Below are positions 7,607 through 23,372 of a DNA stretch of 24,000 nt, one piece after another. The stretch's first letter is position 1. Every line of letters starts with the position of its first letter. A program made the position numbers and the translations under genes. Origin of the DNA: Spongiibacteraceae bacterium (GTDB lineage: Bacteria > Pseudomonadota > Gammaproteobacteria > Pseudomonadales > Dasaniaceae); assembly GCA_030621845.1 (NCBI GenBank), contig JAUXHA010000033.1, positions 1,604 to 25,603 of the forward strand. Direction: 5' to 3'. The notes under the pieces are model-generated. The model ran no database searches, was not told where the DNA came from, and saw only the letters and a list, made by a program, of their open reading frames with translations.

Positions 7607-8188
7607 ATGAACCGCAAGAGAAACAATTACAGCGCATCCTGGGGCGATATGGTTGAAGCGCGCGGGCTGGCGATTTCCGACAGCTGGCAGCCCTCCAGTC
7701 AATTGCTTAACCAACTCATTAGCCAGGGTATCTCCCGCTATGCACTGCTCAATGAATGGCGCGGTGCCTTCATCCAGATCATGCAAAATGAAGATCGCCG
7801 GGAGGGTCAACAGCAATGGGATACACTGTTCCAGCAATTCGTAGCGCAGCAACAGCCGGTGGTCACTCCCTCCCCCGGCACCTATCCTGGCAGGCCAGGC
7901 AGCGAACCTTCGCGCACAGCCACCATGACTAACGACTGGCAGCCCAGCCAGGAAATGTTAAAACTCATTCGCGACACCGTCTGCCCGAACGGCGACTATA
8001 TTAAAGCGCAGCTAACCAGCTTTAGTAGCCACTTTTATGGCCAACACCATCCCAACTGGGATCAAAAGTTCAGGCAGTGGATTAACAACGGCTGGAATGT
8101 TTACGGCCATAAAAATAATTACAAAGAGCAGTCCGAGCAGGGATTTATTGAAAAACACACCGACCGGAGCTGGGCCGATGACCTCTGA
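7607..8188 (+). CDS. Protein with two tandem DnaT-C-terminal-like (phage O/DnaT type) modules; candidate replication/primosome accessory factor
   Basis: 193 aa. Two internally repeated modules each begin with a (S/D)WQPS motif: SDSWQPSSQLLNQLISQGI...QQQWDTLFQQFV and TNDWQPSQEMLKLIRDTV...HPNWDQKFRQWINNGW. They resemble the E. coli DnaT C-terminal segment as I recall it (PDWQPDADFIRL...VQWQQKLARSL). The C-terminal tail TDRSWADDL is reminiscent of the lambda O tail (TDWIYGVDL). The gene is translationally coupled to the next gene. Confidence 0.6.
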   Translation: MNRKRNNYSASWGDMVEARGLAISDSWQPSSQLLNQLISQGISRYALLNEWRGAFIQIMQNEDRREGQQQWDTLFQQFVAQQQPVVTPSPGTYPGRPGSEPSRTATMTNDWQPSQEMLKLIRDTVCPNGDYIKAQLTSFSSHFYGQHHPNWDQKFRQWINNGWNVYGHKNNYKEQSEQGFIEKHTDRSWADDL

Positions 8189-8768
8189 AGTCAGCGCCAG
8201 GCCAGGCATTGATAAAGAAGCCCTGATTAACGTCATTAATCAGCTGTTCGCCGAGTTCGAACTGGTCTATCACAACCAATACAACAAGGCCTTTCCTAAT
8301 GCTGAAAAAGTAAGCTACGCCAAAAAACTCTGGCTGAGCCACCTCTCGGATCACCCGCCACAAATTATTTTGAAGGCCGCTCACTGCGCCATCAGGGAAT
8401 CGGAGTTCCTGCCAACCATTAGGGGCATCCTCAAATATTGTGATGATGGCTACGGCCTCCCTGATGCCCGCAGCGCTTACCTGGAAGCCTGCCGCGCCAG
8501 CAGTCCAAAAAATGAATTCAACTGGTCACATCCTGCGGTATATTATGCTGGCCGTGAATCAGACTGGTACTTTCTCGCCGGTAGTCAGGAGCAACAAGGC
8601 TTCCCGGTATTCAAACGCAATTATACGCTGATCTGCGAGCGTGTTATTGCTGGCGAAACGCTTTCCATCCCCCTGCCCAAAGCCATTCCTGAAACGATCA
8701 ACACGCCCCTCAGTAATGACCAGCGCAAACAGCGCCTGCAATCCCTGCGCAAAGAACTGAAGATTTAA
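8178..8768 (+). CDS. Phage lambda P-like replication protein (helicase-loader family)
   Basis: 196 aa counted from ATG 8178. A GGAG lies 8 nt upstream, and the start overlaps the upstream stop by 11 nt. The protein is colinear with lambda P as I recall it: INQLFAEF vs INGVFSQL; FLPTIRGILKYC vs FLPSPGQFVAWC; GLPDARSAYLEAC vs GLPNVSELVDMVYEYC; WSHPAVYY vs WKSNAHYW; RVIAGETLSIPLPKAIP vs RINRGEAIPEPVKQLP. Confidence 0.65.
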   Translation: MTSEVSARPGIDKEALINVINQLFAEFELVYHNQYNKAFPNAEKVSYAKKLWLSHLSDHPPQIILKAAHCAIRESEFLPTIRGILKYCDDGYGLPDARSAYLEACRASSPKNEFNWSHPAVYYAGRESDWYFLAGSQEQQGFPVFKRNYTLICERVIAGETLSIPLPKAIPETINTPLSNDQRKQRLQSLRKELKI

Positions 8769-8911
8769 TAACAGGCGATGACAGCGGAAGCGGCTATGGC
8801 CGAAAAATGTATCGCCACACTGAGCCACTCGAACTGAATGCCTAACACCTTAAATCCCCACGGGGCAAACTACCACAGTGCCTGCCCTGCACATAACAAA
8901 GAAGATGACAC

Positions 8912-10459
8912 GTGAGTCGAATTATCCGCCTGGGGAAAATCATTGGCACTATTATCCATTATCGGCTGGATACCCTGTTGGATATTGATAACTCATCCGG
9001 CAAATTAGCGTGGCTGCTAACAACCGTGTCATCGCGCTTCCTTCCCAAGCCTGAGCGATCACGCGGTGAACGCTTGCGGCTGGCGTTGGAATCACTGGGT
9101 CCGATTTTTGTTAAATTTGGCCAGATGCTTTCTACCCGTCGCGACCTGATCCCCATCGACATTGCCGATGAACTGGCCAAACTACAGGATCAGGTACCAC
9201 CCTTCCCACAGCAGCAAGCCATTGCCACTATCGAAGCCGCACTGGGCGAATCGGTCGATACCATTTTCGCCCGCTTTAGCGCCGAACCCATGGCCTCCGC
9301 CTCCGTCGCCCAGGTGCATGCGGCAACATTGCATAGCGGCGAACAAGTGGTGGTCAAGGTTGTGCGCCCGGGCATCAAAAAAATTATTACCCAGGACATC
9401 AAATTACTATTTACCCTTGCTCGACTGATAGAAAAATACCTGCCCGATGGCAAGCGTTTGCGCCCCGTAGAAGTGATTGCAGATTACCAGCTAACCATTC
9501 TCGACGAACTGGACTTACAACGAGAAGCGGCCAACACATCTCAACTACGCAGAAATTTTGAGCACTCTGACTCGCTGTATGTGCCCGCCGTCCATTTCGA
9601 TTACACCCGCCGCAATGTTCTGGTAATGGAGCGGATAGACGGCATATCAGTCACCGACCTGCCGGCACTGACAGCACAAAATACCAACATGAAATTACTC
9701 GCTGAACGGGGAGTGGAAACCTTTTTCACCCAGGTATTTCGCGACAGTTTTTTTCACGCCGACATGCACCCTGGTAATGTCTTCATCGCCAAACAACACC
9801 CCGAATCACCACAGTACATTGTCATTGATTGCGCCATTATTGGCAGCCTCAGTGATTTCGACCAATACTACCTGGCCCGCAACCTGCTCGCTATTTTTCA
9901 CCGCGATTACCGCTTGGTGGCTGAGCTTCACATCGAATGTGGCTGGGTACCACCCGATACCCGGGCCCATGAATTTGAATCGGCAATCCGCAGCGCCTGT
10001 GAGCCCATTTTCGCCAAACCGCTGAAGGAGATTTCCTTCGGCCAGATGTTGATTTATCTGTTCCAGACCGCCCGACGCTTTGATATGGAGATACAGCCGT
10101 CCCTGGTTCTATTACAAAAAACCTTATTGAACATCGAAGGCATGGGGCGCGACTTATACCCCGAGCTTAATCTCTGGGATACTGCCCAGCCGTTTCTGGA
10201 AAACTGGATTAAAGACCGCTATGGCCGCGACGGCATCTCTCGACAACTGCAGAAAAAACTGCCCGGATGGCTGGAAAAATTACCCCAGCTACCCGATGCT
10301 GTTTTTGACACGCTAAAACAGAGTGCGCAGCTACAGCAAGCCTATAATAAACAGCAACGCCAACTCGAACTGCTTGAAAAACAGCTTCGATTACAGCATA
10401 TCAGCCAGTGGCTCATTCTGGGCGTGGCCCTCACTGCCCTGTACCTCTACTGGATTTAA
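8912..10459 (+). CDS. ubiB: Ubiquinone biosynthesis regulatory kinase-like protein UbiB (ABC1/AarF family)
   Basis: 515 aa with a GTG start. ABC1 family motifs are present ([47 protein letters not shown]), along with a C-terminal TM helix. The gene is followed by hisIE-tatABC, as in Pseudomonas. Confidence 0.9.
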
Positions 10460-12724: not shown

Positions 12725-13762
12725 ATGACAAGCACAATCAATCATCGTCGTTACAAGATAATCCTGGTGGCGCTGGGCTGGCTTAATTTTACCGCAGTAG
12801 CACTAGCCGATGAACTACCCACGGTAAATGATCTGCTAGTTGACACGCCTTTTCGTTCAAACCACAGCAAACAGGTTCTGGCCGGGGAAATTGCCAGCAC
12901 CAAGGTTGTTCCAGTATCAAAGTCCGAACTGGCTCAAGGCGTTGCCTGCCTGATTAAGGGCGACAAACTGGACCGCCTCGCCTCCGTCCAGGGTGCCACC
13001 TGGCTGGCACCCGAGCGGCAGATTATCAGCAGCGCCAGAATACCGAATCACGCATCGGTAACTGATTTTAATGCTATCCAGCTGCAGCCGAAATACAGCG
13101 ATGAAATAAACGCCTACATGAAGGCCAAAGCCGGCAATCAATTAAATCTTTCCCTCACAGAAATATCGGCCTTTAATGCGCTACAAAGCAGCGAAGACCC
13201 ACAATTAACACTGAACGGTGTCGACCCGCTGATACAGAAAAATTTACTGTCCCGATACCGGGAGTACCGAGAGCAGGGATTAAAAAACCTGTCGCCTTAT
13301 GCTCGAACTCGAGGCAAGGAAGTCCAGCCAGGAAAACAATTAATGATTTCTCTGGAGGAATCATTAGCACTAAAGAGAATATACCCAAAAATTTATAATG
13401 CGCTTGAGCAATACCCCCAAGCCAGCAGCGATGTCGTAGCGGTAGAAGATTATTTTTCGTATATGGTGGACTTGAATGATCGCCCCGCTATCGGCTTAAG
13501 CCATCGCCTCCGCATCCACGCCGAAGGCGCAAGCTTTGTTATCGAGCGCGGTTATTACATCAGCCATACACTGGATACTGTACAGATTGTGGTGGCGTTA
13601 ATTCCGGTTCAGGAAGGCATGCTACTGATCTACACCAACCGCACCTGGACAGAAAAAATTACCGGCTTGTTCAGCCTGATCAAACGAAGAATTGCCTACA
13701 ACATCATGATTGCTGAAATGGAACATGTAATGAAAAATATCGATCTATGCGGCGCGTCCTGA
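12725..13762 (+). CDS. Hypothetical exported protein (family not recognised)
   Basis: 345 aa. It starts 35 nt after tatC on the same strand. The N-terminus MTSTINHRRYKIILVALGWLNFTAVALA|DE has a signal-peptide shape with an RR pair and an AxA cleavage site. I can name no known domain and see no obvious SD sequence. Confidence 0.6.
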   Translation: MTSTINHRRYKIILVALGWLNFTAVALADELPTVNDLLVDTPFRSNHSKQVLAGEIASTKVVPVSKSELAQGVACLIKGDKLDRLASVQGATWLAPERQIISSARIPNHASVTDFNAIQLQPKYSDEINAYMKAKAGNQLNLSLTEISAFNALQSSEDPQLTLNGVDPLIQKNLLSRYREYREQGLKNLSPYARTRGKEVQPGKQLMISLEESLALKRIYPKIYNALEQYPQASSDVVAVEDYFSYMVDLNDRPAIGLSHRLRIHAEGASFVIERGYYISHTLDTVQIVVALIPVQEGMLLIYTNRTWTEKITGLFSLIKRRIAYNIMIAEMEHVMKNIDLCGAS

Positions 13763-15061: not shown

Positions 15062-15089
15062 AAGGCCGCAACAACTGTTGCGGCCTTTT
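15062..15089 (+). terminator. Rho-independent terminator of vfr
   Basis: AAGGCCGCAAC-AACT-GTTGCGGCCTT forms an 11-bp GC-rich stem with a 4-nt loop and runs into a TTTT tract. It begins 22 nt after the vfr stop. Confidence 0.75.
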
Positions 15090-15100
15090 CATTTCAGCGT

Positions 15101-15766
15101 TCAGGGATTTTTATCGCCGGCCAGGTTTAACACCGCCGCTACACACTGCGTAATGCCCTTGTAGGCGTCCAATACACAGTCGGCCAGCATATAAGCCGGT
15201 GTTGTCACCAGCTTTCTCTCCTTATCAATCACCACCTTATCGACCGGACACACCCTGTGCTCGCCGCCCATGGCCTTAATCGCGGCCGCTGTTTCGCTAT
15301 CATCACCAATAGTGCAGCTCACACCTTCGCCACATATTGCCGCAGCCATAGTGGGTGCGATACAGATTAAACCAATCGGTTTCCCGCCCAGATGCATGGC
15401 GCGGGCAAACTGGAGAAAGTCTGCCTGCACCGTCATCGCGTTACCGCTGACAGCAAAATCCGAGAGATTTTTTGCCGCCCCAAAACCACCGGGTACCAGC
15501 AACGCATCGAAGTCGTCCGCATCGGCCTCAGCCAACGGCTGTATATTACCTCGAGCAATCCGCGCTGCTTCAACTAGCACATTGCGTGTTTCACCCACGG
15601 CAACGTCCCCGTTAAGATGATTAATCACATGCAGTTGCTCAATATCAGGCGCAAAGCACTGGTAACGGGCTCCGGCCTGCTCCAAGGCCAACAAGCTCAA
15701 TACCGCCTCATTAATTTCGGCGCCATCGTAAACACCGCATCCCGCCAATACCACCGCTACTTTCAT
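15101..15766 (-). CDS. elbB: ElbB, DJ-1/PfpI-superfamily protein (glyoxalase-like)
   Basis: It is colinear with E. coli ElbB as I recall it: VVLAGCGVYDGAEINEAVL, CFAPD, VINHL, TRNVLVEAARIARG, LLVPGGFGAAKNLS, ICIAP, VTTPAYML. The start is ATG 15766 or 15769 (MMKV), preceded by GGGAGAGGA. It lies 21-24 nt downstream of the methyltransferase stop. Confidence 0.88.
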   Translation of the reverse strand: MKVAVVLAGCGVYDGAEINEAVLSLLALEQAGARYQCFAPDIEQLHVINHLNGDVAVGETRNVLVEAARIARGNIQPLAEADADDFDALLVPGGFGAAKNLSDFAVSGNAMTVQADFLQFARAMHLGGKPIGLICIAPTMAAAICGEGVSCTIGDDSETAAAIKAMGGEHRVCPVDKVVIDKERKLVTTPAYMLADCVLDAYKGITQCVAAVLNLAGDKNP

Positions 15767-15790
15767 CATTCCTCTCCCGATCAAACATAA

Positions 15791-16906
15791 CTAGCAACAA
15801 GCGCCATCAGTCGCACCGCCGTGCAAGCTGCCTTTGGTTTCCTGTACCCCGCGCAAGGTACCGGGCGCCGCATTAAAACAACCGTTATTGACTGCGGTTG
15901 ACGACGAAATACAGACAAAATCCCCCGCATAGGGGCCATCGGCAAGCAATTCAAAGGTACGTCGGGAAACCGCAATGCGCTGCCCGCGCGGATACACATT
16001 ACCCAAATCATCATGCACTGACTGGTAAGGCCCCTTATAAATAACAGCATCACCACCATCAAATAACTGAGTGTGCGCCGGTTTGGTTGCGATCAGGGTC
16101 ACCGAACGAAATTCAATCCCCTCAACGACCTGCCAGGCTTGCTGGTCCCACTTGTCATAGGCAACACCGATAAAGCCCGCATCCAGGAATGCCTGTAAAA
16201 ACTCCTGCTCAAGAAAAGCACCGGAAATACAACCACTCCATAAGTTGGGGTCATTCTGTAAATGCTCGGGAATTTCCTCATCGGCGACAATATCCGAAAT
16301 AGCCACGCGACCGCCCGGGGCTATTACCCGAAAAATTTCTTCAATCATTTGCTGGCGGTGTTTTTTTTCTACCAGGTTCAACACGCAATTAGAAATCACC
16401 AGGTTCACCGAGGCATCAGCAATGAGCGGTGACGCTTCTCTCTGCTGCTGTTTCCAGGCTTCCAGGGATTGTAAATCCGCCGCACTGCTGACCGCTTGTG
16501 TAGATAAACGCTGCTCCAGCGCATCAAGACTCAAGGCAAGATCCTGAATATATCCCTTGCGAAATTCCACCCTGTCACCACCGAGTTTTTCGGCCATGGG
16601 CTGTTGGTATTTTCTCGCCAAAGCCAGCATATCATCAGTCATATCGACACCAATAACACGGCCCTGCTCACCAACCAGTTGCGCCGCCATATAGCAAATT
16701 TTGCCACCCCCGGAACCGAGATCCAATACCACATCACCCTCGCGAACATAGCGCGAGGGGTCACCACAGCCATAGTCCTTATCGATGATTTCCTGGGGCA
16801 ATAAGGCCAATAGCGATTGATCGTAATCCACTGGGCAGCACAAGGCCTCCTGTCTGGACTGCGCCCCCTCTGCGTATCGTTCCTGTACTACTGTTTCCAC
16901 TGACAT
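15791..16906 (-). CDS. AS3MT/ArsM-type (arsenite-methyltransferase family) SAM-dependent methyltransferase, three-domain form
   Basis: 371 aa.
- N-terminal region: VQERYAEGA...LCCP and DYGCGDP.
- SAM motif I: VLDLGSGGG, then VIGVDMTDDML.
- Further family motifs: ISNCVLNL, PGGRVAISD, LWSGCISGA.
- Cysteines at 23/24, 47, 174 and 226 match the pattern of the four conserved ArsM cysteines.
- The C-terminal domain resembles that of human AS3MT (AVIYKGPY...FELL...DF), and the protein ends in a terminal ACC.
- A GGAG RBS lies 7 nt upstream. Confidence 0.75.
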   Translation of the reverse strand: MSVETVVQERYAEGAQSRQEALCCPVDYDQSLLALLPQEIIDKDYGCGDPSRYVREGDVVLDLGSGGGKICYMAAQLVGEQGRVIGVDMTDDMLALARKYQQPMAEKLGGDRVEFRKGYIQDLALSLDALEQRLSTQAVSSAADLQSLEAWKQQQREASPLIADASVNLVISNCVLNLVEKKHRQQMIEEIFRVIAPGGRVAISDIVADEEIPEHLQNDPNLWSGCISGAFLEQEFLQAFLDAGFIGVAYDKWDQQAWQVVEGIEFRSVTLIATKPAHTQLFDGGDAVIYKGPYQSVHDDLGNVYPRGQRIAVSRRTFELLADGPYAGDFVCISSSTAVNNGCFNAAPGTLRGVQETKGSLHGGATDGACC

Positions 16907-17011
16907 TGCCTTACTCCACTGCTTTCGGCGTTAAGTTAAATTGTCCGCAACACATTAGCCTAAATCCAGATGCTCACTCTTAACCTCCTGGCGAGCGGGA
17001 CAGGGCATCCA

Positions 17012-19150
17012 CTAGGCATTTCTTTTATAGCGATGAAACTTCTCAGCCAGGCGTAATAAAAATTCCGGTTTACGTTGTTTTTTCCATTCCCCCGCCACGT
17101 ACTTATTAGCTTCACTAAAAGTCGGGTAAATATGAATCGTGGCGAGAATCTTATTCAAACCCAGGCCGTGCTTCATTGCTAAAATATACTCGGTTATTAA
17201 TTCACTGGCATGATAACCAACAATGCTAACGCCAAGAATTCTATCACTGTTAACGGCCGTCAGGACTTTAATAAAACCCTGCGTCTCGGAATCAGCGATG
17301 GCCCGATCCAAATCATCCAGGGCAAATACCGTTAGCTCGTACTGGATACCCTGCTGCATTGCCTCCTGTTCATTCAAGCCGACACGCGCCGCTTCGGGGT
17401 CAGTAAAGGTGACCCAGGGAATCACCGAATAATCGACCTTGAATTTCCTGAAACTGCCAAACAGGCTGTTCACCGCCGCATACCAGGCTTGATGTGAGGC
17501 CACATGGGTAAACTGATAGGGACCGGCGACATCGCCACAGGCATATATGGTTGGGCAATCGGTACGCAGATTGTCATCCACCGCAACCGTACCGGTTTCG
17601 GTGCGTTCAATACCCACGGTTTCAAGCCCCATATTCTCGGTATTAGCCTGACGCCCTACGGCAAACAACAGTTGGTCAAACTCAATCGTCGACTCACCAC
17701 CACTGTGTGACAGGGTTGCTGAATACTTGCCCCGTTTATTTTCCAGTGCCAGCAACTGGTGTCGGCACAGGACATCAATCCCCTCACGCTCAAATTGCTG
17801 TTTAATCTCGGTACTCACATCCAGATCTTCCTTCGGCAGCAACTCACTGCGTACGACCATGGTTACCCGGCTGCCCAGACGAACAAATGCCTGCGCCAAC
17901 TCACAGCCAACCGGACCACCGCCGACCACCAATAAATGCCGCGGCTGTTGCGCCAACTGCCAAATCGTATCGGAGGTCAGGTAATCAATCGCGTCCAGGC
18001 CCTCGATATCAGGCACCTGTGGGCGACCCCCGCTGGCGATAATAATATTTCGCGCGCTTTGCACCTCATTGCCTATTTTCACCTCCCAGGGCGAGATGAT
18101 CTTCGCCTCACCCTGTACACAATTAACCCCCAGCTCGGTATAGCGCTCAACCGAGTCATGGGGTTCAATCTGGCTGATCACCCGGTCAACCCGCCGCATC
18201 ACCTCAGGAAAATTCACCACCCCATTGACGCCTTCAATACCAAATTCACTGGCGCGACTCAAATAATGATTGATACGACTGGAACGAATAAGTGCCTTGC
18301 TAGGAACACAGCCGGTGTTGAGACAGTCACCGCCCATTTTATGTTTTTCCACCAGCGTGACTTTCGCCTTGACCATGGCGGCGATATAGGCCGACACCAG
18401 CCCCGCTGAACCCGCGCCAATCACCAGCAGGTTATTATCAAAAAAATCCGGCTTGCGAAAAGGTGCCAGCCGCCGCCGATCTTTAAACCAGGCGATCATT
18501 ACTTTCGCCAACCAGGGGAAAATACCCAGAGCCACAAAAGAACCAATCAGTGCCGGTGAGAAAATATCCCCGACACTGTCCAGCCGACCCAACTGGGTAC
18601 CCGCATTCACATAGACCGCAGTACCCGCCAACATTCCCAGCTGGCTGACCCAGTAGAATGACCAGATCCTGATCGGCATTAAGCCCATCACCAGGTTGAT
18701 GACGAAAAAGGGGAACAGCGGCACCAGTCTCAAGGTAAAAAGATAAAAGGCCCCGTCTTTTTCTATGCCCGAATTAATCGTTGACAGGTACGGCTCAAAA
18801 CGCTGCTGTACCCATTGCCGAAACAGCGTGCGAGAGATAATAAACGCCAGCGTAGCCCCGATGGTCGAAGCGAAGGAGACAATTAGCAACGCCCAGCCGA
18901 AGCCAAACAGGGCACCTCCCGCCAGGGTTAGCACTGCGGCACCGGGCAGGGACAGAGCCGTCACCACAATATAAAGCCCCGCGTAGAGTAGCGCCGCCAG
19001 TAACGGTTGCCCTTCACGCCAGGCCTCCAGCGCCTGGCGTTGAGCGGCAAAGTAATCAAGACTCAGGTATTGTCCTGCATCAAAGTAAAAGAATGCCGCG
19101 ACCGCCAAAACCAGTAGCACAAACAAAGCCAATTTATACATATACATCAT
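17012..19150 (-). CDS. Fusion protein: N-terminal DedA/TVP38-TMEM64 membrane domain plus C-terminal class-I pyridine-nucleotide-disulfide oxidoreductase (GR/LpdA/MerA-like)
   Basis: 712 aa.
- Approximately aa 1-225 (nt 18475-19150) are polytopic and hydrophobic, with DedA-like motifs (LSLPGAAVLTLAGGALFG, FTLRLVPLFPFFVINLVMG).
- From approximately aa 237 on: FAD GxGxxG (LLVIGAGSAGL), redox-active disulfide GGDCLNTGCVPSK, NAD(P)H GxGxxG (LLVVGGGPVGCE), IYACGDVAG, and the C-terminal His-Glu dyad HIYPTFSE. Confidence 0.85.
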   Translation of the reverse strand: MMYMYKLALFVLLVLAVAAFFYFDAGQYLSLDYFAAQRQALEAWREGQPLLAALLYAGLYIVVTALSLPGAAVLTLAGGALFGFGWALLIVSFASTIGATLAFIISRTLFRQWVQQRFEPYLSTINSGIEKDGAFYLFTLRLVPLFPFFVINLVMGLMPIRIWSFYWVSQLGMLAGTAVYVNAGTQLGRLDSVGDIFSPALIGSFVALGIFPWLAKVMIAWFKDRRRLAPFRKPDFFDNNLLVIGAGSAGLVSAYIAAMVKAKVTLVEKHKMGGDCLNTGCVPSKALIRSSRINHYLSRASEFGIEGVNGVVNFPEVMRRVDRVISQIEPHDSVERYTELGVNCVQGEAKIISPWEVKIGNEVQSARNIIIASGGRPQVPDIEGLDAIDYLTSDTIWQLAQQPRHLLVVGGGPVGCELAQAFVRLGSRVTMVVRSELLPKEDLDVSTEIKQQFEREGIDVLCRHQLLALENKRGKYSATLSHSGGESTIEFDQLLFAVGRQANTENMGLETVGIERTETGTVAVDDNLRTDCPTIYACGDVAGPYQFTHVASHQAWYAAVNSLFGSFRKFKVDYSVIPWVTFTDPEAARVGLNEQEAMQQGIQYELTVFALDDLDRAIADSETQGFIKVLTAVNSDRILGVSIVGYHASELITEYILAMKHGLGLNKILATIHIYPTFSEANKYVAGEWKKQRKPEFLLRLAEKFHRYKRNA

Positions 19151-19375
19151 CCGTTGAAGAGAGCCACCGCAATAGCCAACAAACTATCCGGCCGCCGCCA
19201 GCTACTGACCGGGCAATTAAATTCAAAGCCCACCTTGAATTATCTGCTAGCAGCCCCATATTGAGCGAATAACAGCAGGCGGGATTTAATTTACTGTTGG
19301 CAATGTTATGATGACGACATTGTACATTTCCAACAACCGGCTGACAGCCTCATTATTGATTCTGGAGAGAAAACC

Positions 19376-19702
19376 ATGAGCGGCAATATCGTTCACACAA
19401 GCGATGCAAGTTTTGAAACAGATGTACTGGCTTCCGAGCTACCCGTATTAGTCGATTTTTGGGCTGAATGGTGTGGCCCCTGCAAGGCTATTGCTCCGCG
19501 CCTGGCCGAAATTGCCGATGAATATGCCGGTAAAATCAAGGTTTGCAAAGTCGATGTTGACGCCAACCCCGACACCGCGCCTAAATATGGCATTCGCGGT
19601 ATTCCCACCCTGATCATTTTTAAAGGCGGCAACGCAGAAGCGACCAAGGTCGGCGCCCTGACCAAAACACAGCTGATTGAATTTGTCGACGCCGCACTAT
19701 AA
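19376..19702 (+). CDS. trxA: Thioredoxin 1
   Basis: 108 aa. It has the active site WAEWCGPCK and [14 protein letters not shown]. The gene lies immediately upstream of rho, as in E. coli. A GGAGAG RBS is present. Confidence 0.96.
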
Positions 19703-22595: not shown

Positions 22596-23372
22596 CTAAC
22601 TCTTCCGGCGTATGGTCAACAAACCAATCAAGCCAAGTGCTAACAACGCTATTGAACTCGGCTCCGGAACTTCAGCAACAACAATATTACCGTCGATGGC
22701 ATCATTACCACAGGACATCGTCCAATGGGCATCAAAGTTATCCAGTGAGGCAAAACCCAAGGCAGCAAGGTCAAAGGAGACCTGGCGGTAATAACTATCA
22801 CCACTGACACCAGCCATATTCGCGGACAGGGCATTAGCACTGGAATAAGTCGACATGGCAAAGGGGTTAGACACTGTATGGCCACTGTAGACATCGTTAT
22901 TCCAGCTACTCACCTGATAGACACCCTCCGCCGCATTTAAGCCCTGCTCATTATTATCACCGCAATCGGCGTTGTTTCGCTGGCTCCAACCACACTGTTC
23001 CAAACCAAAATCAACGGCATATTCGTAGGAGCCGGCATCACCCAGCGTCGCACCATCAAATGACAGCGCAAGATCGCCGGCCCAATAATTTTTACCACTG
23101 TAAAGCTGGTGACCATCGATAATATCAAAACCGGTTTGCAAACCAATTGATAAGGTAGTGCCATCCAGCTTGTACAACAGGTATTCAGCATCGAACTGCT
23201 GGCCGCCATAACCGGGATCGACATAATTGAAATTGCCTTCCTGGTCCTCAGCGGCAAACTCTGTCCAACCAGCCCATGTACCATCATTGATCAAGCCTGC
23301 ATTGACCGCAGAAGAAAATAATACCAAGCCTAAACCAACAGAAAGAATTCCCTTTGTATAACGCATTGCCAT
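22596..23372 (-). CDS. Secreted PEP-CTERM sorting-domain protein (function unknown)
   Basis: 258 aa. The N-terminal signal peptide is MAMRYTKGILSVGLGLVLFSSAVNA|G. The C-terminus is VPEPSSIALLALGLIGLLTIRRKS, which is the PEP motif, a TM helix and a basic tail. The body is rich in Gly, Asp, Asn, Ser, Tyr and Trp. A GGAG RBS is present. Confidence 0.82.
   Translation of the reverse strand: MAMRYTKGILSVGLGLVLFSSAVNAGLINDGTWAGWTEFAAEDQEGNFNYVDPGYGGQQFDAEYLLYKLDGTTLSIGLQTGFDIIDGHQLYSGKNYWAGDLALSFDGATLGDAGSYEYAVDFGLEQCGWSQRNNADCGDNNEQGLNAAEGVYQVSSWNNDVYSGHTVSNPFAMSTYSSANALSANMAGVSGDSYYRQVSFDLAALGFASLDNFDAHWTMSCGNDAIDGNIVVAEVPEPSSIALLALGLIGLLTIRRKS

Follow-up and report, generated by a model that had tools for sequence, protein, structure and literature searches.

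Arsenic methylation and the formation of arsenosugars and arsenolipids shape the speciation of arsenic in the sea and in seafood, and within the searchable literature, experimentally supported roles in the bacterial pathway have been assigned to ArsM and ArsS only. In Synechocystis, ArsS uses the products of the methyltransferase ArsM, and its gene is co-transcribed with arsM (bioRxiv 10.1101/2022.09.23.509062). ArsM enzymes accept and release trivalent arsenicals exclusively, and these are quickly oxidized in air (PMC8552651), which raises the question of how aerobic marine bacteria keep their arsenic chemistry reduced. Among DedA membrane proteins, the combination of a COG0398 DedA domain with the flavoprotein domains PF07992 and PF02852 is the most common COG0398 DedA fusion; it has been discussed for aerobic metabolism only, with no function and no link to arsenic (PMC10127716). 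The current study concerns a gene for such a DedA::reductase fusion, which is followed by the gene of a predicted ArsM/AS3MT-type methyltransferase and by elbB in a 24,000-nucleotide (nt) stretch of contig JAUXHA010000033.1 from a Spongiibacteraceae bacterium (GenBank assembly GCA_030621845.1). This whole stretch is hereafter called the window, and the section with the cluster spans positions 15101-19375.

We hold with moderate confidence that the fusion and methyltransferase genes are an arsenic module of two genes, which derives from an ArsS-type neighborhood, and that ElbB is a passenger. Judged from the comparison of loci, the pair appears to be a reduced, ArsS-less, Oceanicoccus-like (probably Cellvibrionales) version of a widespread proteobacterial neighborhood. 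The latter comprises ArsS, ArsM, the TIGR04282 and TIGR04283 transferases, the reductase, and DedA, often together with DUF547, DUF3047, and a fatty-acid-hydroxylase-family protein, and its core genes are annotated by NCBI as arsenosugar biosynthesis.

The two proteins and their recurrent linkage

The methyltransferase gene (15791..16906, minus strand) encodes 371 amino acids (aa) with a class I S-adenosylmethionine (SAM)-dependent methyltransferase core (PF13847, 99.5 bits; cut-off, 27) and an invariant glycine-rich SAM motif, LDLGSGGG. Its best NCBIfam match is NF040538 (arsinothricin ArsM; 352.8 bits versus a cut-off of 500), which covers the protein in one stretch including an insert of roughly 36 aa, and every other top match is an ArsM family as well. 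Because methyltransferases adjoining ArsS in other genomes have the same NCBIfam score pattern, they and the window enzyme form one subfamily, and since all of them remain below the cut-offs, this subfamily lacks a curated model. In the alignment to CmArsM of Cyanidioschyzon (structures 4FR0 and 4KW7), C47, C174, and C226 coincide residue for residue with the As(III)-binding cysteines C72, C174, and C224, and the ArsM-specific C-terminal domain is aligned through query residue 323 (chain residue 330). The C23/C24 pair lies 23 to 24 residues upstream of C47, compared to 28 in CmArsM, and is thus an unaligned, positional match for the fourth cysteine, CmArsM C44. The cysteines at positions 23/24, 47, 174, and 226 are invariant among 20 homologs, and Cys30, Cys54, Cys181, and Cys233 of BgArsM lie at a constant offset of +7 (PMC8552651). 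The proposal of the preliminary description of this locus that the enzyme is of the ArsM/AS3MT type is borne out by these matches and by the arsenic-binding cysteines in their expected places; we would assign it to a "long-insert" subfamily that is shared with arsinothricin ArsM, apparently its closest characterized relative. The protein also carries a C-terminal CC. A role of this tail as a reductase-specific electron or arsenic shuttle was considered and dropped, as nearly every ArsM ends in CC regardless of its surroundings; the canonical-type ArsMs of loci L083, L142, and L144 do so, too.

The fusion gene (17012..19150, minus strand) corresponds to an open reading frame (ORF; 19150..17012) of 712 aa and encodes a protein of 709 to 712 aa, depending on the start codon. 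Hydrophobic segments extend over approximately residues 1-223 and include a VTT/DedA domain (PF09335, 78.6 bits; cut-off, 33.9; residues 72-185), whose assignment to the COG0398/TVP38 type is made by analogy with the published fusion pattern. They are followed by the basic linker KDRRRLAPFRKP (7 K+R in 26 residues), and because this linker lies after the last membrane segment, the flavoprotein part, with Pyr_redox_2 (PF07992, residues 240-555) and Pyr_redox_dim (PF02852, residues 577-683), is suggested to face the cytoplasm. The fusion misses the cut-offs of its best NCBIfam match NF004991 (505 versus 620 bits), of TIGR02053 (397 versus 454 bits), and of TIGR01350 (399 versus 408.8 bits), and the best solved relatives of the reductase are MerA (5X1Y, 277 bits) and LpdA (1EBD, 246 bits).

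The redox-active CxxxxC motif beside the flavin adenine dinucleotide (FAD), GGDCLNTGCVPSK, is formed by C276-x4-C281, and each of the two cysteines is present in 108 of 109 members of the reductase family. The earlier view of a standard CxxxxC disulfide reductase nevertheless has to be abandoned, since a tyrosine replaces the catalytic histidine throughout the family. All 109 members possess an HxYPT motif (H673-x-Y675-P-T in the window protein) with an invariant Tyr675 and a nearly invariant His673, and the segment C-H-A-H-P-T-L-S-E of human DLD aligns with I-H-I-Y-P-T-F-S-E of the query, which places Tyr675 at the position of the catalytic histidine. The same position is taken by a tyrosine in MerA. 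An interpretation of HIYPTFSE as the catalytic His-Glu dyad (H-P-T-x-x-E), which the partner subunit contributes in canonical class I disulfide reductases such as GR and LpdA, was accordingly given up, because the alignments to DLD and MerA put Tyr675 and not His673 at the catalytic position. A C-terminal cysteine pair (two cysteines in the last 25 residues), which in MerA is vicinal and passes Hg(II) to the active site, was found in none of the 109 family members, and the fusion has no NmerA domain, its N terminus being the DedA domain. With a tyrosine for the catalytic histidine and without the C-terminal pair, the protein would be neither a canonical disulfide reductase nor MerA, and the exchange hints at a thiolate-bound metal or metalloid as the substrate.

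The genomic context of the methyltransferase was investigated by scanning a single genome of each species for related enzymes, which resulted in 80 loci with up to 10 kilobases (kb) on each side. Neighbor counts are based on tblastn, as our own ORF caller gives spurious ORFs in high-GC loci (e.g., family 10). A reductase homolog with 41 to 72% identity, i.e., far above paralogs such as LpdA, is located within 3.5 kb of the methyltransferase in 31 of the 80 loci, which corresponds to a binomial P value of ~1e-28 at a rough expectation of ~2.5% with related loci treated as independent. In 15 of these 31 loci, the reductase directly precedes the methyltransferase and ArsS is not nearby. The window belongs to this group according to the tree; so do Oceanicoccus, Porticoccaceae, and "Pseudomonadales" genomes. 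All of its loci except L063, whose upstream flank is too short to tell, have trxA in the flank (14 of 15), often with rho or hemB. The Oceanicoccus-like placement is based on the identity of the methyltransferase (73%) and of Rho (92%) to L001 and L002. The closest relatives of the window, L165 and L166 (78 to 82% identity), both retain the order fusion-methyltransferase-ElbB. Among named cultured relatives, a methyltransferase homolog occurs in Oceanicoccus, Pseudomaricurvus alkylphenolicus, and Exilibacterium tricleocarpae, and a fusion homolog was also seen in Oceanicoccus sp. KOV_DT_Chl alone.

In the other 16 of the 31 loci, additional genes accompany the reductase, and several architectures occur. 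The order reductase, DedA, ArsS, methyltransferase is found in Piscirickettsiaceae and Nitrosomonadaceae, and it is extended by GT2 and GT1 in L020, L037, and L053; fusion, ArsS, methyltransferase is the order in Methylobacter and Cycloclasticus, and methyltransferase, ArsS, reductase, DedA that in Cupriavidus (L072). Among all 31 linked loci, a split DedA gene precedes the reductase and the methyltransferase in L009 and L070, and the pair is divergently oriented in L051 and L069; divergent arrangements were noted in Methylococcaceae. The linked loci thus display at least four gene orders, with the reductase fused or split. ArsS (TIGR04167, radical SAM; 458 bits; cut-off, 300) adjoins the methyltransferase in 40 of the 80 loci, and TIGR04282/TIGR04283 transferases, which carry the NCBI name of arsenosugar biosynthesis glycosyltransferases and score above their curated cut-offs, lie within 5 kb in 22 of the 80, often downstream. 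The check for a conserved neighborhood that had been proposed for the fusion, the methyltransferase, and elbB was therefore positive for the first two (31 of 80 loci, fused or split) and negative for elbB, which accompanies them in a narrow clade only.

Two observations from this set concern the neighbors of the methyltransferase. In the Porticoccaceae-like loci L003 and L006, the reductase (at about 8500-9960) stands directly before the methyltransferase, and no DedA domain was detected by tblastn; the naive ORF of this reductase has 564 aa, with an N-terminal portion unlike the DedA domain of the window protein. Furthermore, a membrane protein of ~270 aa from the fatty-acid hydroxylase/sterol desaturase family (PF04116) is encoded directly ahead of the ArsM-type gene (~0 to 50 nt) in nine ArsS-less loci (L012, L035, L041, L049, L050, L057, L058, L061, and L066), ahead of the fusion in L083 (5140-5940) and L086, and inside the full ArsS clusters of L015, L032, L036, L037, and L068. 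Its weak best NCBIfam match is the ornithine-lipid hydroxylase OlsE, and this neighbor hints at a lipid product.

The reverse test started from the fusion. Three fusion homologs were looked up singly and gave the arrangements described for Halioglobus (L081/82), L083, and L084. A metagenome scan provided 80 fusion homologs (54 to 63% identity), and the fusion-selected loci are numbered L081-L164; the flanks are short in many of them. Arsenic genes, i.e., ArsS (24), transferases (24), or ArsM (11), are present in the flanks of 39 of the 80 homologs and in 15 of the 27 loci whose two flanks both reach 5 kb or more. The reductase accompanies ArsS at least as often as ArsM. Canonical, insert-less ArsMs that are ~30% identical to the window enzyme are located directly after the fusion in L083 (8148-9215), 226 bp downstream in L142 (5668-6906), and 1.1 kb away in L144 (4564-5604), and they are best seen as putative non-orthologous replacements of the long-insert type. 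The arrangement in L083 is hemB on one side and, on the other, fatty-acid hydroxylase-fusion-ArsM-ORF-ElbB. In a neighbor-joining tree calculated for 109 reductase domains, arsenic-linked contexts occur throughout, at scattered positions, and they fill the basal clade of unfused reductases. Since the linkage survives rearrangement, fusion and fission, and the swap of one ArsM type for another, there is good evidence from gene order that reductase/DedA and ArsM/ArsS, which are linked far beyond chance, would belong to a shared pathway.

Further genes recur in the fusion-selected loci. DUF547 proteins with a conserved N-C-A-S-x-G-C-P motif flank the fusion in 18 loci of L081-L164, being next to it, e.g., in L087, L089, L094, L098, L099, L113, L121, L126, L128, L134, L136, L147, and L148, and this cysteine motif would suit a redox partner. 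DUF3047 proteins are repeatedly found near the fusion as well, and both families also occur in the methyltransferase-selected set. A second, unrelated Pyr_redox_2 flavoprotein of ~370 aa follows the TIGR04282 transferase in L111 (11731-12852), L114 (10445-11545), and L163 (11464-13197), so that these ArsS-fusion clusters would encode two different flavin reductases. A small gene with a GIY-YIG nuclease domain (80 to 81 aa) lies just downstream of the fusion in L084 (8203-8445) or of ElbB in L081 (8870-9115) and L082 (8690-8935), and all three loci lack the methyltransferase.

Proposed working of the pair and alternative explanations

The turnover of ArsM oxidizes its own cysteines by a disulfide cascade, and a reductant is needed. 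In the mechanism that we propose, the methyltransferase would bind trivalent arsenic on Cys47, Cys174, and Cys226 and methylate it with SAM, whereby its cysteines (23/24-47) would become oxidized as in the published cascade. The cytoplasm-facing reductase domain would carry electrons from NAD(P)H via FAD to C276/C281 and keep either the thiols of the enzyme or the arsenical itself reduced, trivalent, and thiol bound at the inner face of the membrane, a state that would otherwise soon be lost in oxygenated seawater. The tyrosine in place of the catalytic histidine, as in MerA, would fit a thiolate-bound metalloid as the substrate rather than an ordinary disulfide. The DedA domain would tether this chemistry to the membrane and may move an arsenical substrate or a lipid-like product across it. 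Without ArsS in the window, methylated arsenicals would be the expected products, provided that the genome does not encode ArsS at another locus. 

A bolder version of this scheme, which we consider unlikely, makes the HxYPT reductases, both those fused to DedA and those encoded adjacent to it, a new type of MerA-like arsenical reductase. With NAD(P)H as the electron donor, such an enzyme would convert pentavalent arsenicals (arsenate, methylarsenate, or dimethylarsenate) back into trivalent, thiol-bound ones at the membrane and thereby feed ArsM and ArsS in oxic waters, while DedA and the fatty-acid-hydroxylase-family, DUF547, and DUF3047 neighbors would handle a membrane-bound organoarsenical, e.g., an arsenolipid. 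If true, the HxYPT family would account for accessory steps that are missing from bacterial organoarsenical synthesis and would provide a methylarsenical-reducing enzyme.

Several observations weigh against the arsenic module. The methyltransferase reaches no curated NCBIfam cut-off (NF008823, 192 versus 263 bits; NF038099, 126 versus 400 bits), the window contains no arsR, no arsC, and no arsenic efflux gene, and the reductase is missing within 3.5 kb in 49 of the 80 methyltransferase loci, just as arsenic genes are missing from the flanks of 41 of the 80 fusion homologs. The link is not obligatory, and either gene can be found without the other at the same syntenic position: in Halioglobus (L081/82), trxA is adjoined by fusion-ElbB-GIY-YIG without the methyltransferase, and in L084 neither the methyltransferase nor ElbB adjoins the fusion at the same trxA-linked position. 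Because ArsS-fusion-GT2-GT1 clusters often have no ArsM within reach, the reductase cannot serve ArsM alone. The trees are quick neighbor-joining trees without support values. Finally, both what the reductase acts on and what DedA does are purely inferred, and for any one particular substrate, our confidence is much lower than for the general reading. Of the self-contained module for metalloid chemistry that was initially envisaged, the metalloid role persists, and arsenic specifically would be the best reading, since an ArsM-type enzyme with arsenic-binding cysteines is linked to the reductase and a second ArsM type occupies the same slot; the module is probably neither self-contained nor obligatory, as each gene is also found on its own.

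The loci without a methyltransferase lend themselves to another explanation, according to which the two genes are not functionally coupled: the DedA::reductase fusion would be a general membrane-redox or lipid-homeostasis protein of the housekeeping neighborhood ubiD-rho-trxA-(hemB), and arsM merely landed or stayed beside it. The trxA-linked fusions of L081/82 and L084, the 41 homologs with arsenic-free flanks, the restriction of the published discussion to aerobic metabolism (PMC10127716), and the housekeeping character of the rest of the window all agree with such a scenario. It is, however, rather unlikely in our view, as the co-localization recurs in lineages as distant as Nitrosomonadaceae, Cupriavidus, Methylococcaceae, Acidiferrobacterales, and Piscirickettsiaceae, where the pairs lie away from trxA and hemB in varied orders and in fused or split form. 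A non-orthologous ArsM in the same slot of L083 and the arsenic-linked contexts throughout the reductase tree point in the same direction, and many of the seemingly empty fusion loci have short flanks. The adjacency of trxA itself looks like trxA-rho housekeeping synteny, because trxA stays in place in loci without the methyltransferase. A quite improbable variant would retain all three genes in one operon with ElbB as a working accessory, e.g., a thiol-dependent glyoxalase/deglycase acting on a by-product. The short gap of 21 to 24 nt with a good Shine-Dalgarno sequence and no terminator, the order fusion-methyltransferase-ElbB in L165, L166, L001, and L009, and the presence of ElbB after the fusion in Halioglobus and 1.5 kb downstream in L083 would fit this idea, but beyond L001, L009, L165, and L166, the directly adjacent fusion-methyltransferase loci have other downstream genes. 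ElbB is a common stand-alone housekeeping gene in gammaproteobacteria. Its adjacency to the fusion is limited to the window, L001, L009, L081/82, L083, L165, and L166, and it is absent from 78 of the 80 methyltransferase loci (present in 2) and from all 80 metagenomic fusion loci. Since ElbB is confined to a narrow clade and comes after the fusion in methyltransferase-free loci, too, as in Halioglobus, it is probably a clade-specific passenger in an inherited local synteny and not the accessory that it had been taken for.

The choice of the element is a separate matter. A module for selenium, tellurium, mercury, or another electrophile could be suspected because class I flavoprotein reductases reduce selenite and tellurite in vitro, because the reductase resembles MerA at the tyrosine position, and because ArsS-family proteins are often selenoproteins, as reflected in the curated name "radical SAM (seleno)protein ArsS"; moreover, a passage of PMC10127716 cites a reference that links a DedA protein to selenite resistance. 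We nevertheless regard a substrate other than arsenic as very improbable, given that the methyltransferase combines an exact alignment of three cysteines to the As(III) site of CmArsM with a fourth in the expected place, that all of its significant curated matches are arsenic methyltransferase families, and that its orthologs adjoin ArsS, a family with an experimentally supported arsenic role. The closest characterized relative methylates an organoarsenical (PMC8552651), and mercury in particular is disfavored by a reductase without the C-terminal cysteine pair and NmerA domain of MerA and by a window without mer genes.

Layout of the locus and neighboring genes

The ORF calls on the window confirmed that the fusion gene, the methyltransferase gene, and elbB are arranged in series on the minus strand. 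A database protein that is identical to the fusion protein (P0121) has 709 aa, and for this reason the gene probably starts with the ATG at 19141 rather than at 19150. The third gene, elbB (15101..15769, minus strand; ORF, 15784..15101), encodes a member of the DJ-1/PfpI superfamily, the "isoprenoid biosynthesis glyoxalase ElbB" (NF008747, 314.8 bits versus a cut-off of 180; profile positions 1-217). It most likely starts with the ATG at 15766, alternatively at 15769, and the GGGAGAGG box, which lies 4 nt ahead of the ATG at 15766 in our reading of the sequence, is best placed for this codon. A GGAG was likewise read 7 nt ahead of the ATG of the methyltransferase gene, and the good Shine-Dalgarno sequences initially reported for the two downstream genes were thus recovered.

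The fusion and methyltransferase genes are separated by a spacer of 105 nt (16907..17011, minus strand) and the methyltransferase gene and elbB by 21 to 24 nt with the Shine-Dalgarno sequence, as described before. In most directly adjacent loci of relatives, the former spacer measures 38 to 108 nt, and it reaches 272 nt in L023. The terminator scan found no terminator-like site in either spacer, again in agreement with the preliminary description; a structured element or terminator in the 105-nt spacer was discarded, as the scan was empty and the predicted RNA fold was no better than that of shuffled sequences (z, +1.45). In the window, elbB is probably co-transcribed with the upstream genes, to judge from this arrangement. 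The cluster ends, as was stated, just before the terminator region of vfr, where a G+C-rich hairpin with a stem of 11 bp (15062..15087) was detected by the terminator scan between elbB and the convergent crp/vfr gene. Its T-run is on the plus strand, i.e., on the crp side, and the T tract on the side of the minus strand is only weak; the hairpin is likely the end of the transcription unit, as far as its sequence tells.

On the other side, the fusion gene is divergent from trxA (19376..19702, plus strand) across an intergenic region of 225 nt (19151..19375), which also corresponds to the first account. The promoter scan indicated a sigma-70-like minus-strand site at 19347..19319 (CTGTCA-17-TACAAT) inside this region. 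Promoter-like and terminator-like matches are as numerous there as expected from shuffled sequences, and because of this number of promoter-like matches, the site is a mere promoter candidate. Riboswitches and other known RNAs were dropped from consideration for the intergenic regions, as Rfam had no match at the gathering score in the whole window.

The remaining genes of the window are housekeeping genes (pilMNOP, mrcA, radA, ubiB, hisI, tatC, osmC, crp, trxA, rho, and hemW). The reported absence of ars and mer genes holds for the entire window, in which no arsR, arsC, arsenic efflux gene, merR, merT, or merP was found, and tblastn with ArsS sequences from 25 loci detected no match in the window, nor was there a match to the TIGR04282/TIGR04283 transferases. 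Some of its ORFs deserve a separate remark. Between radA and ubiB, two overlapping plus-strand ORFs (7607-8188 and 8037-8768) without an NCBIfam match carry a DnaT DNA-binding domain (PF17948) in one case and a phage lambda replication protein P domain (PF06992) in the other. They could form a pair of primosome or helicase-loader proteins among housekeeping genes, and their overlap of 150 nt suggests that one start codon was miscalled. Between tatC and osmC, a plus-strand ORF of 345 aa (12725-13762) has a hydrophobic N terminus and neither a Pfam nor an NCBIfam match. The only match of a 258-aa protein (22596-23372, minus strand) is a C-terminal PEP-CTERM sorting motif, which implies that an exosortase system is encoded by this genome.

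Relation to described systems

What is new within the searchable literature is the systematic link of the HxYPT reductase and DedA to ArsM and ArsS and the minimal, ArsS-less form of this neighborhood. A search for literature on TIGR04167, TIGR04282, TIGR04283, DedA, mercuric reductase, or DUF547 in connection with arsenosugars or arsS found, within the searchable papers, no study that assigns a role to the reductase or DedA. With a MerA-like flavoprotein that is tied to DedA and recurs beside ArsM and ArsS across Proteobacteria, there is now a concrete candidate for the reducing step, and the two-gene form of the window is the simplest version for testing it.

The composition of the locus had been presented as unlike any characterized system. 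This has to be revised, because the two genes amount to a fragment of the ArsS/ArsM neighborhood that NCBIfam annotates as arsenosugar biosynthesis. One counterpart is the ArsM-ArsS pathway of arsenosugar formation (Synechocystis sp. PCC 6803; NCBIfam TIGR04167, TIGR04282, TIGR04283, and NF038099), in which ArsM supplies trivalent methylarsenicals to ArsS. In 40 of 80 species, an ortholog of the window enzyme is the direct neighbor of ArsS; the two transferases often come next, and the reductase and DedA recur in such clusters. In contrast, the window itself lacks ArsS and the transferases, and its enzyme, which stays below the NF038099 cut-off, represents another ArsM subfamily. The arsinothricin cluster arsQML of Burkholderia gladioli encodes the ArsM that matches best (BgArsM, via NF040538), with 378 compared to 371 aa and four cysteines at the same spacing, and in both cases these are ArsM types whose relatives partner a radical SAM enzyme that forms C-As bonds. 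The window enzyme, however, stays below the 500-bit cut-off, ArsL and the permease ArsQ are missing, and the partner is a flavoprotein-DedA fusion.

On the side of the reductase, MerA of the mer operon shares the best structural match (5X1Y), the CxxxxC motif, and the tyrosine at the position of the catalytic histidine of GR and LpdA, whereas the family described here differs by the lack of the C-terminal cysteine pair (0 of 109), by DedA in place of NmerA, by a TIGR02053 score below the cut-off, and by the absence of merR, merT, and merP. ArsT, a thioredoxin reductase that is encoded with the thioredoxin ArsX in some actinobacterial ars clusters, is a precedent for a dedicated NADPH-dependent PF07992 oxidoreductase that is encoded with arsenic genes to provide reducing power (PMC6514093). 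ArsT is a soluble thioredoxin reductase of the low-Mr type serving ArsC-type arsenate reduction, whereas the reductase of the window is a high-Mr class I (MerA/LpdA-like) enzyme that carries a fused membrane domain and has its link to ArsM/ArsS, not to ArsC. The domain architecture is identical to that of the surveyed COG0398 DedA-PF07992/PF02852 fusions (PMC10127716). The survey offers neither a function nor an arsenic link for them, whereas the ArsM/ArsS neighborhood provides a first specific hypothesis on what this most common DedA domain fusion does.

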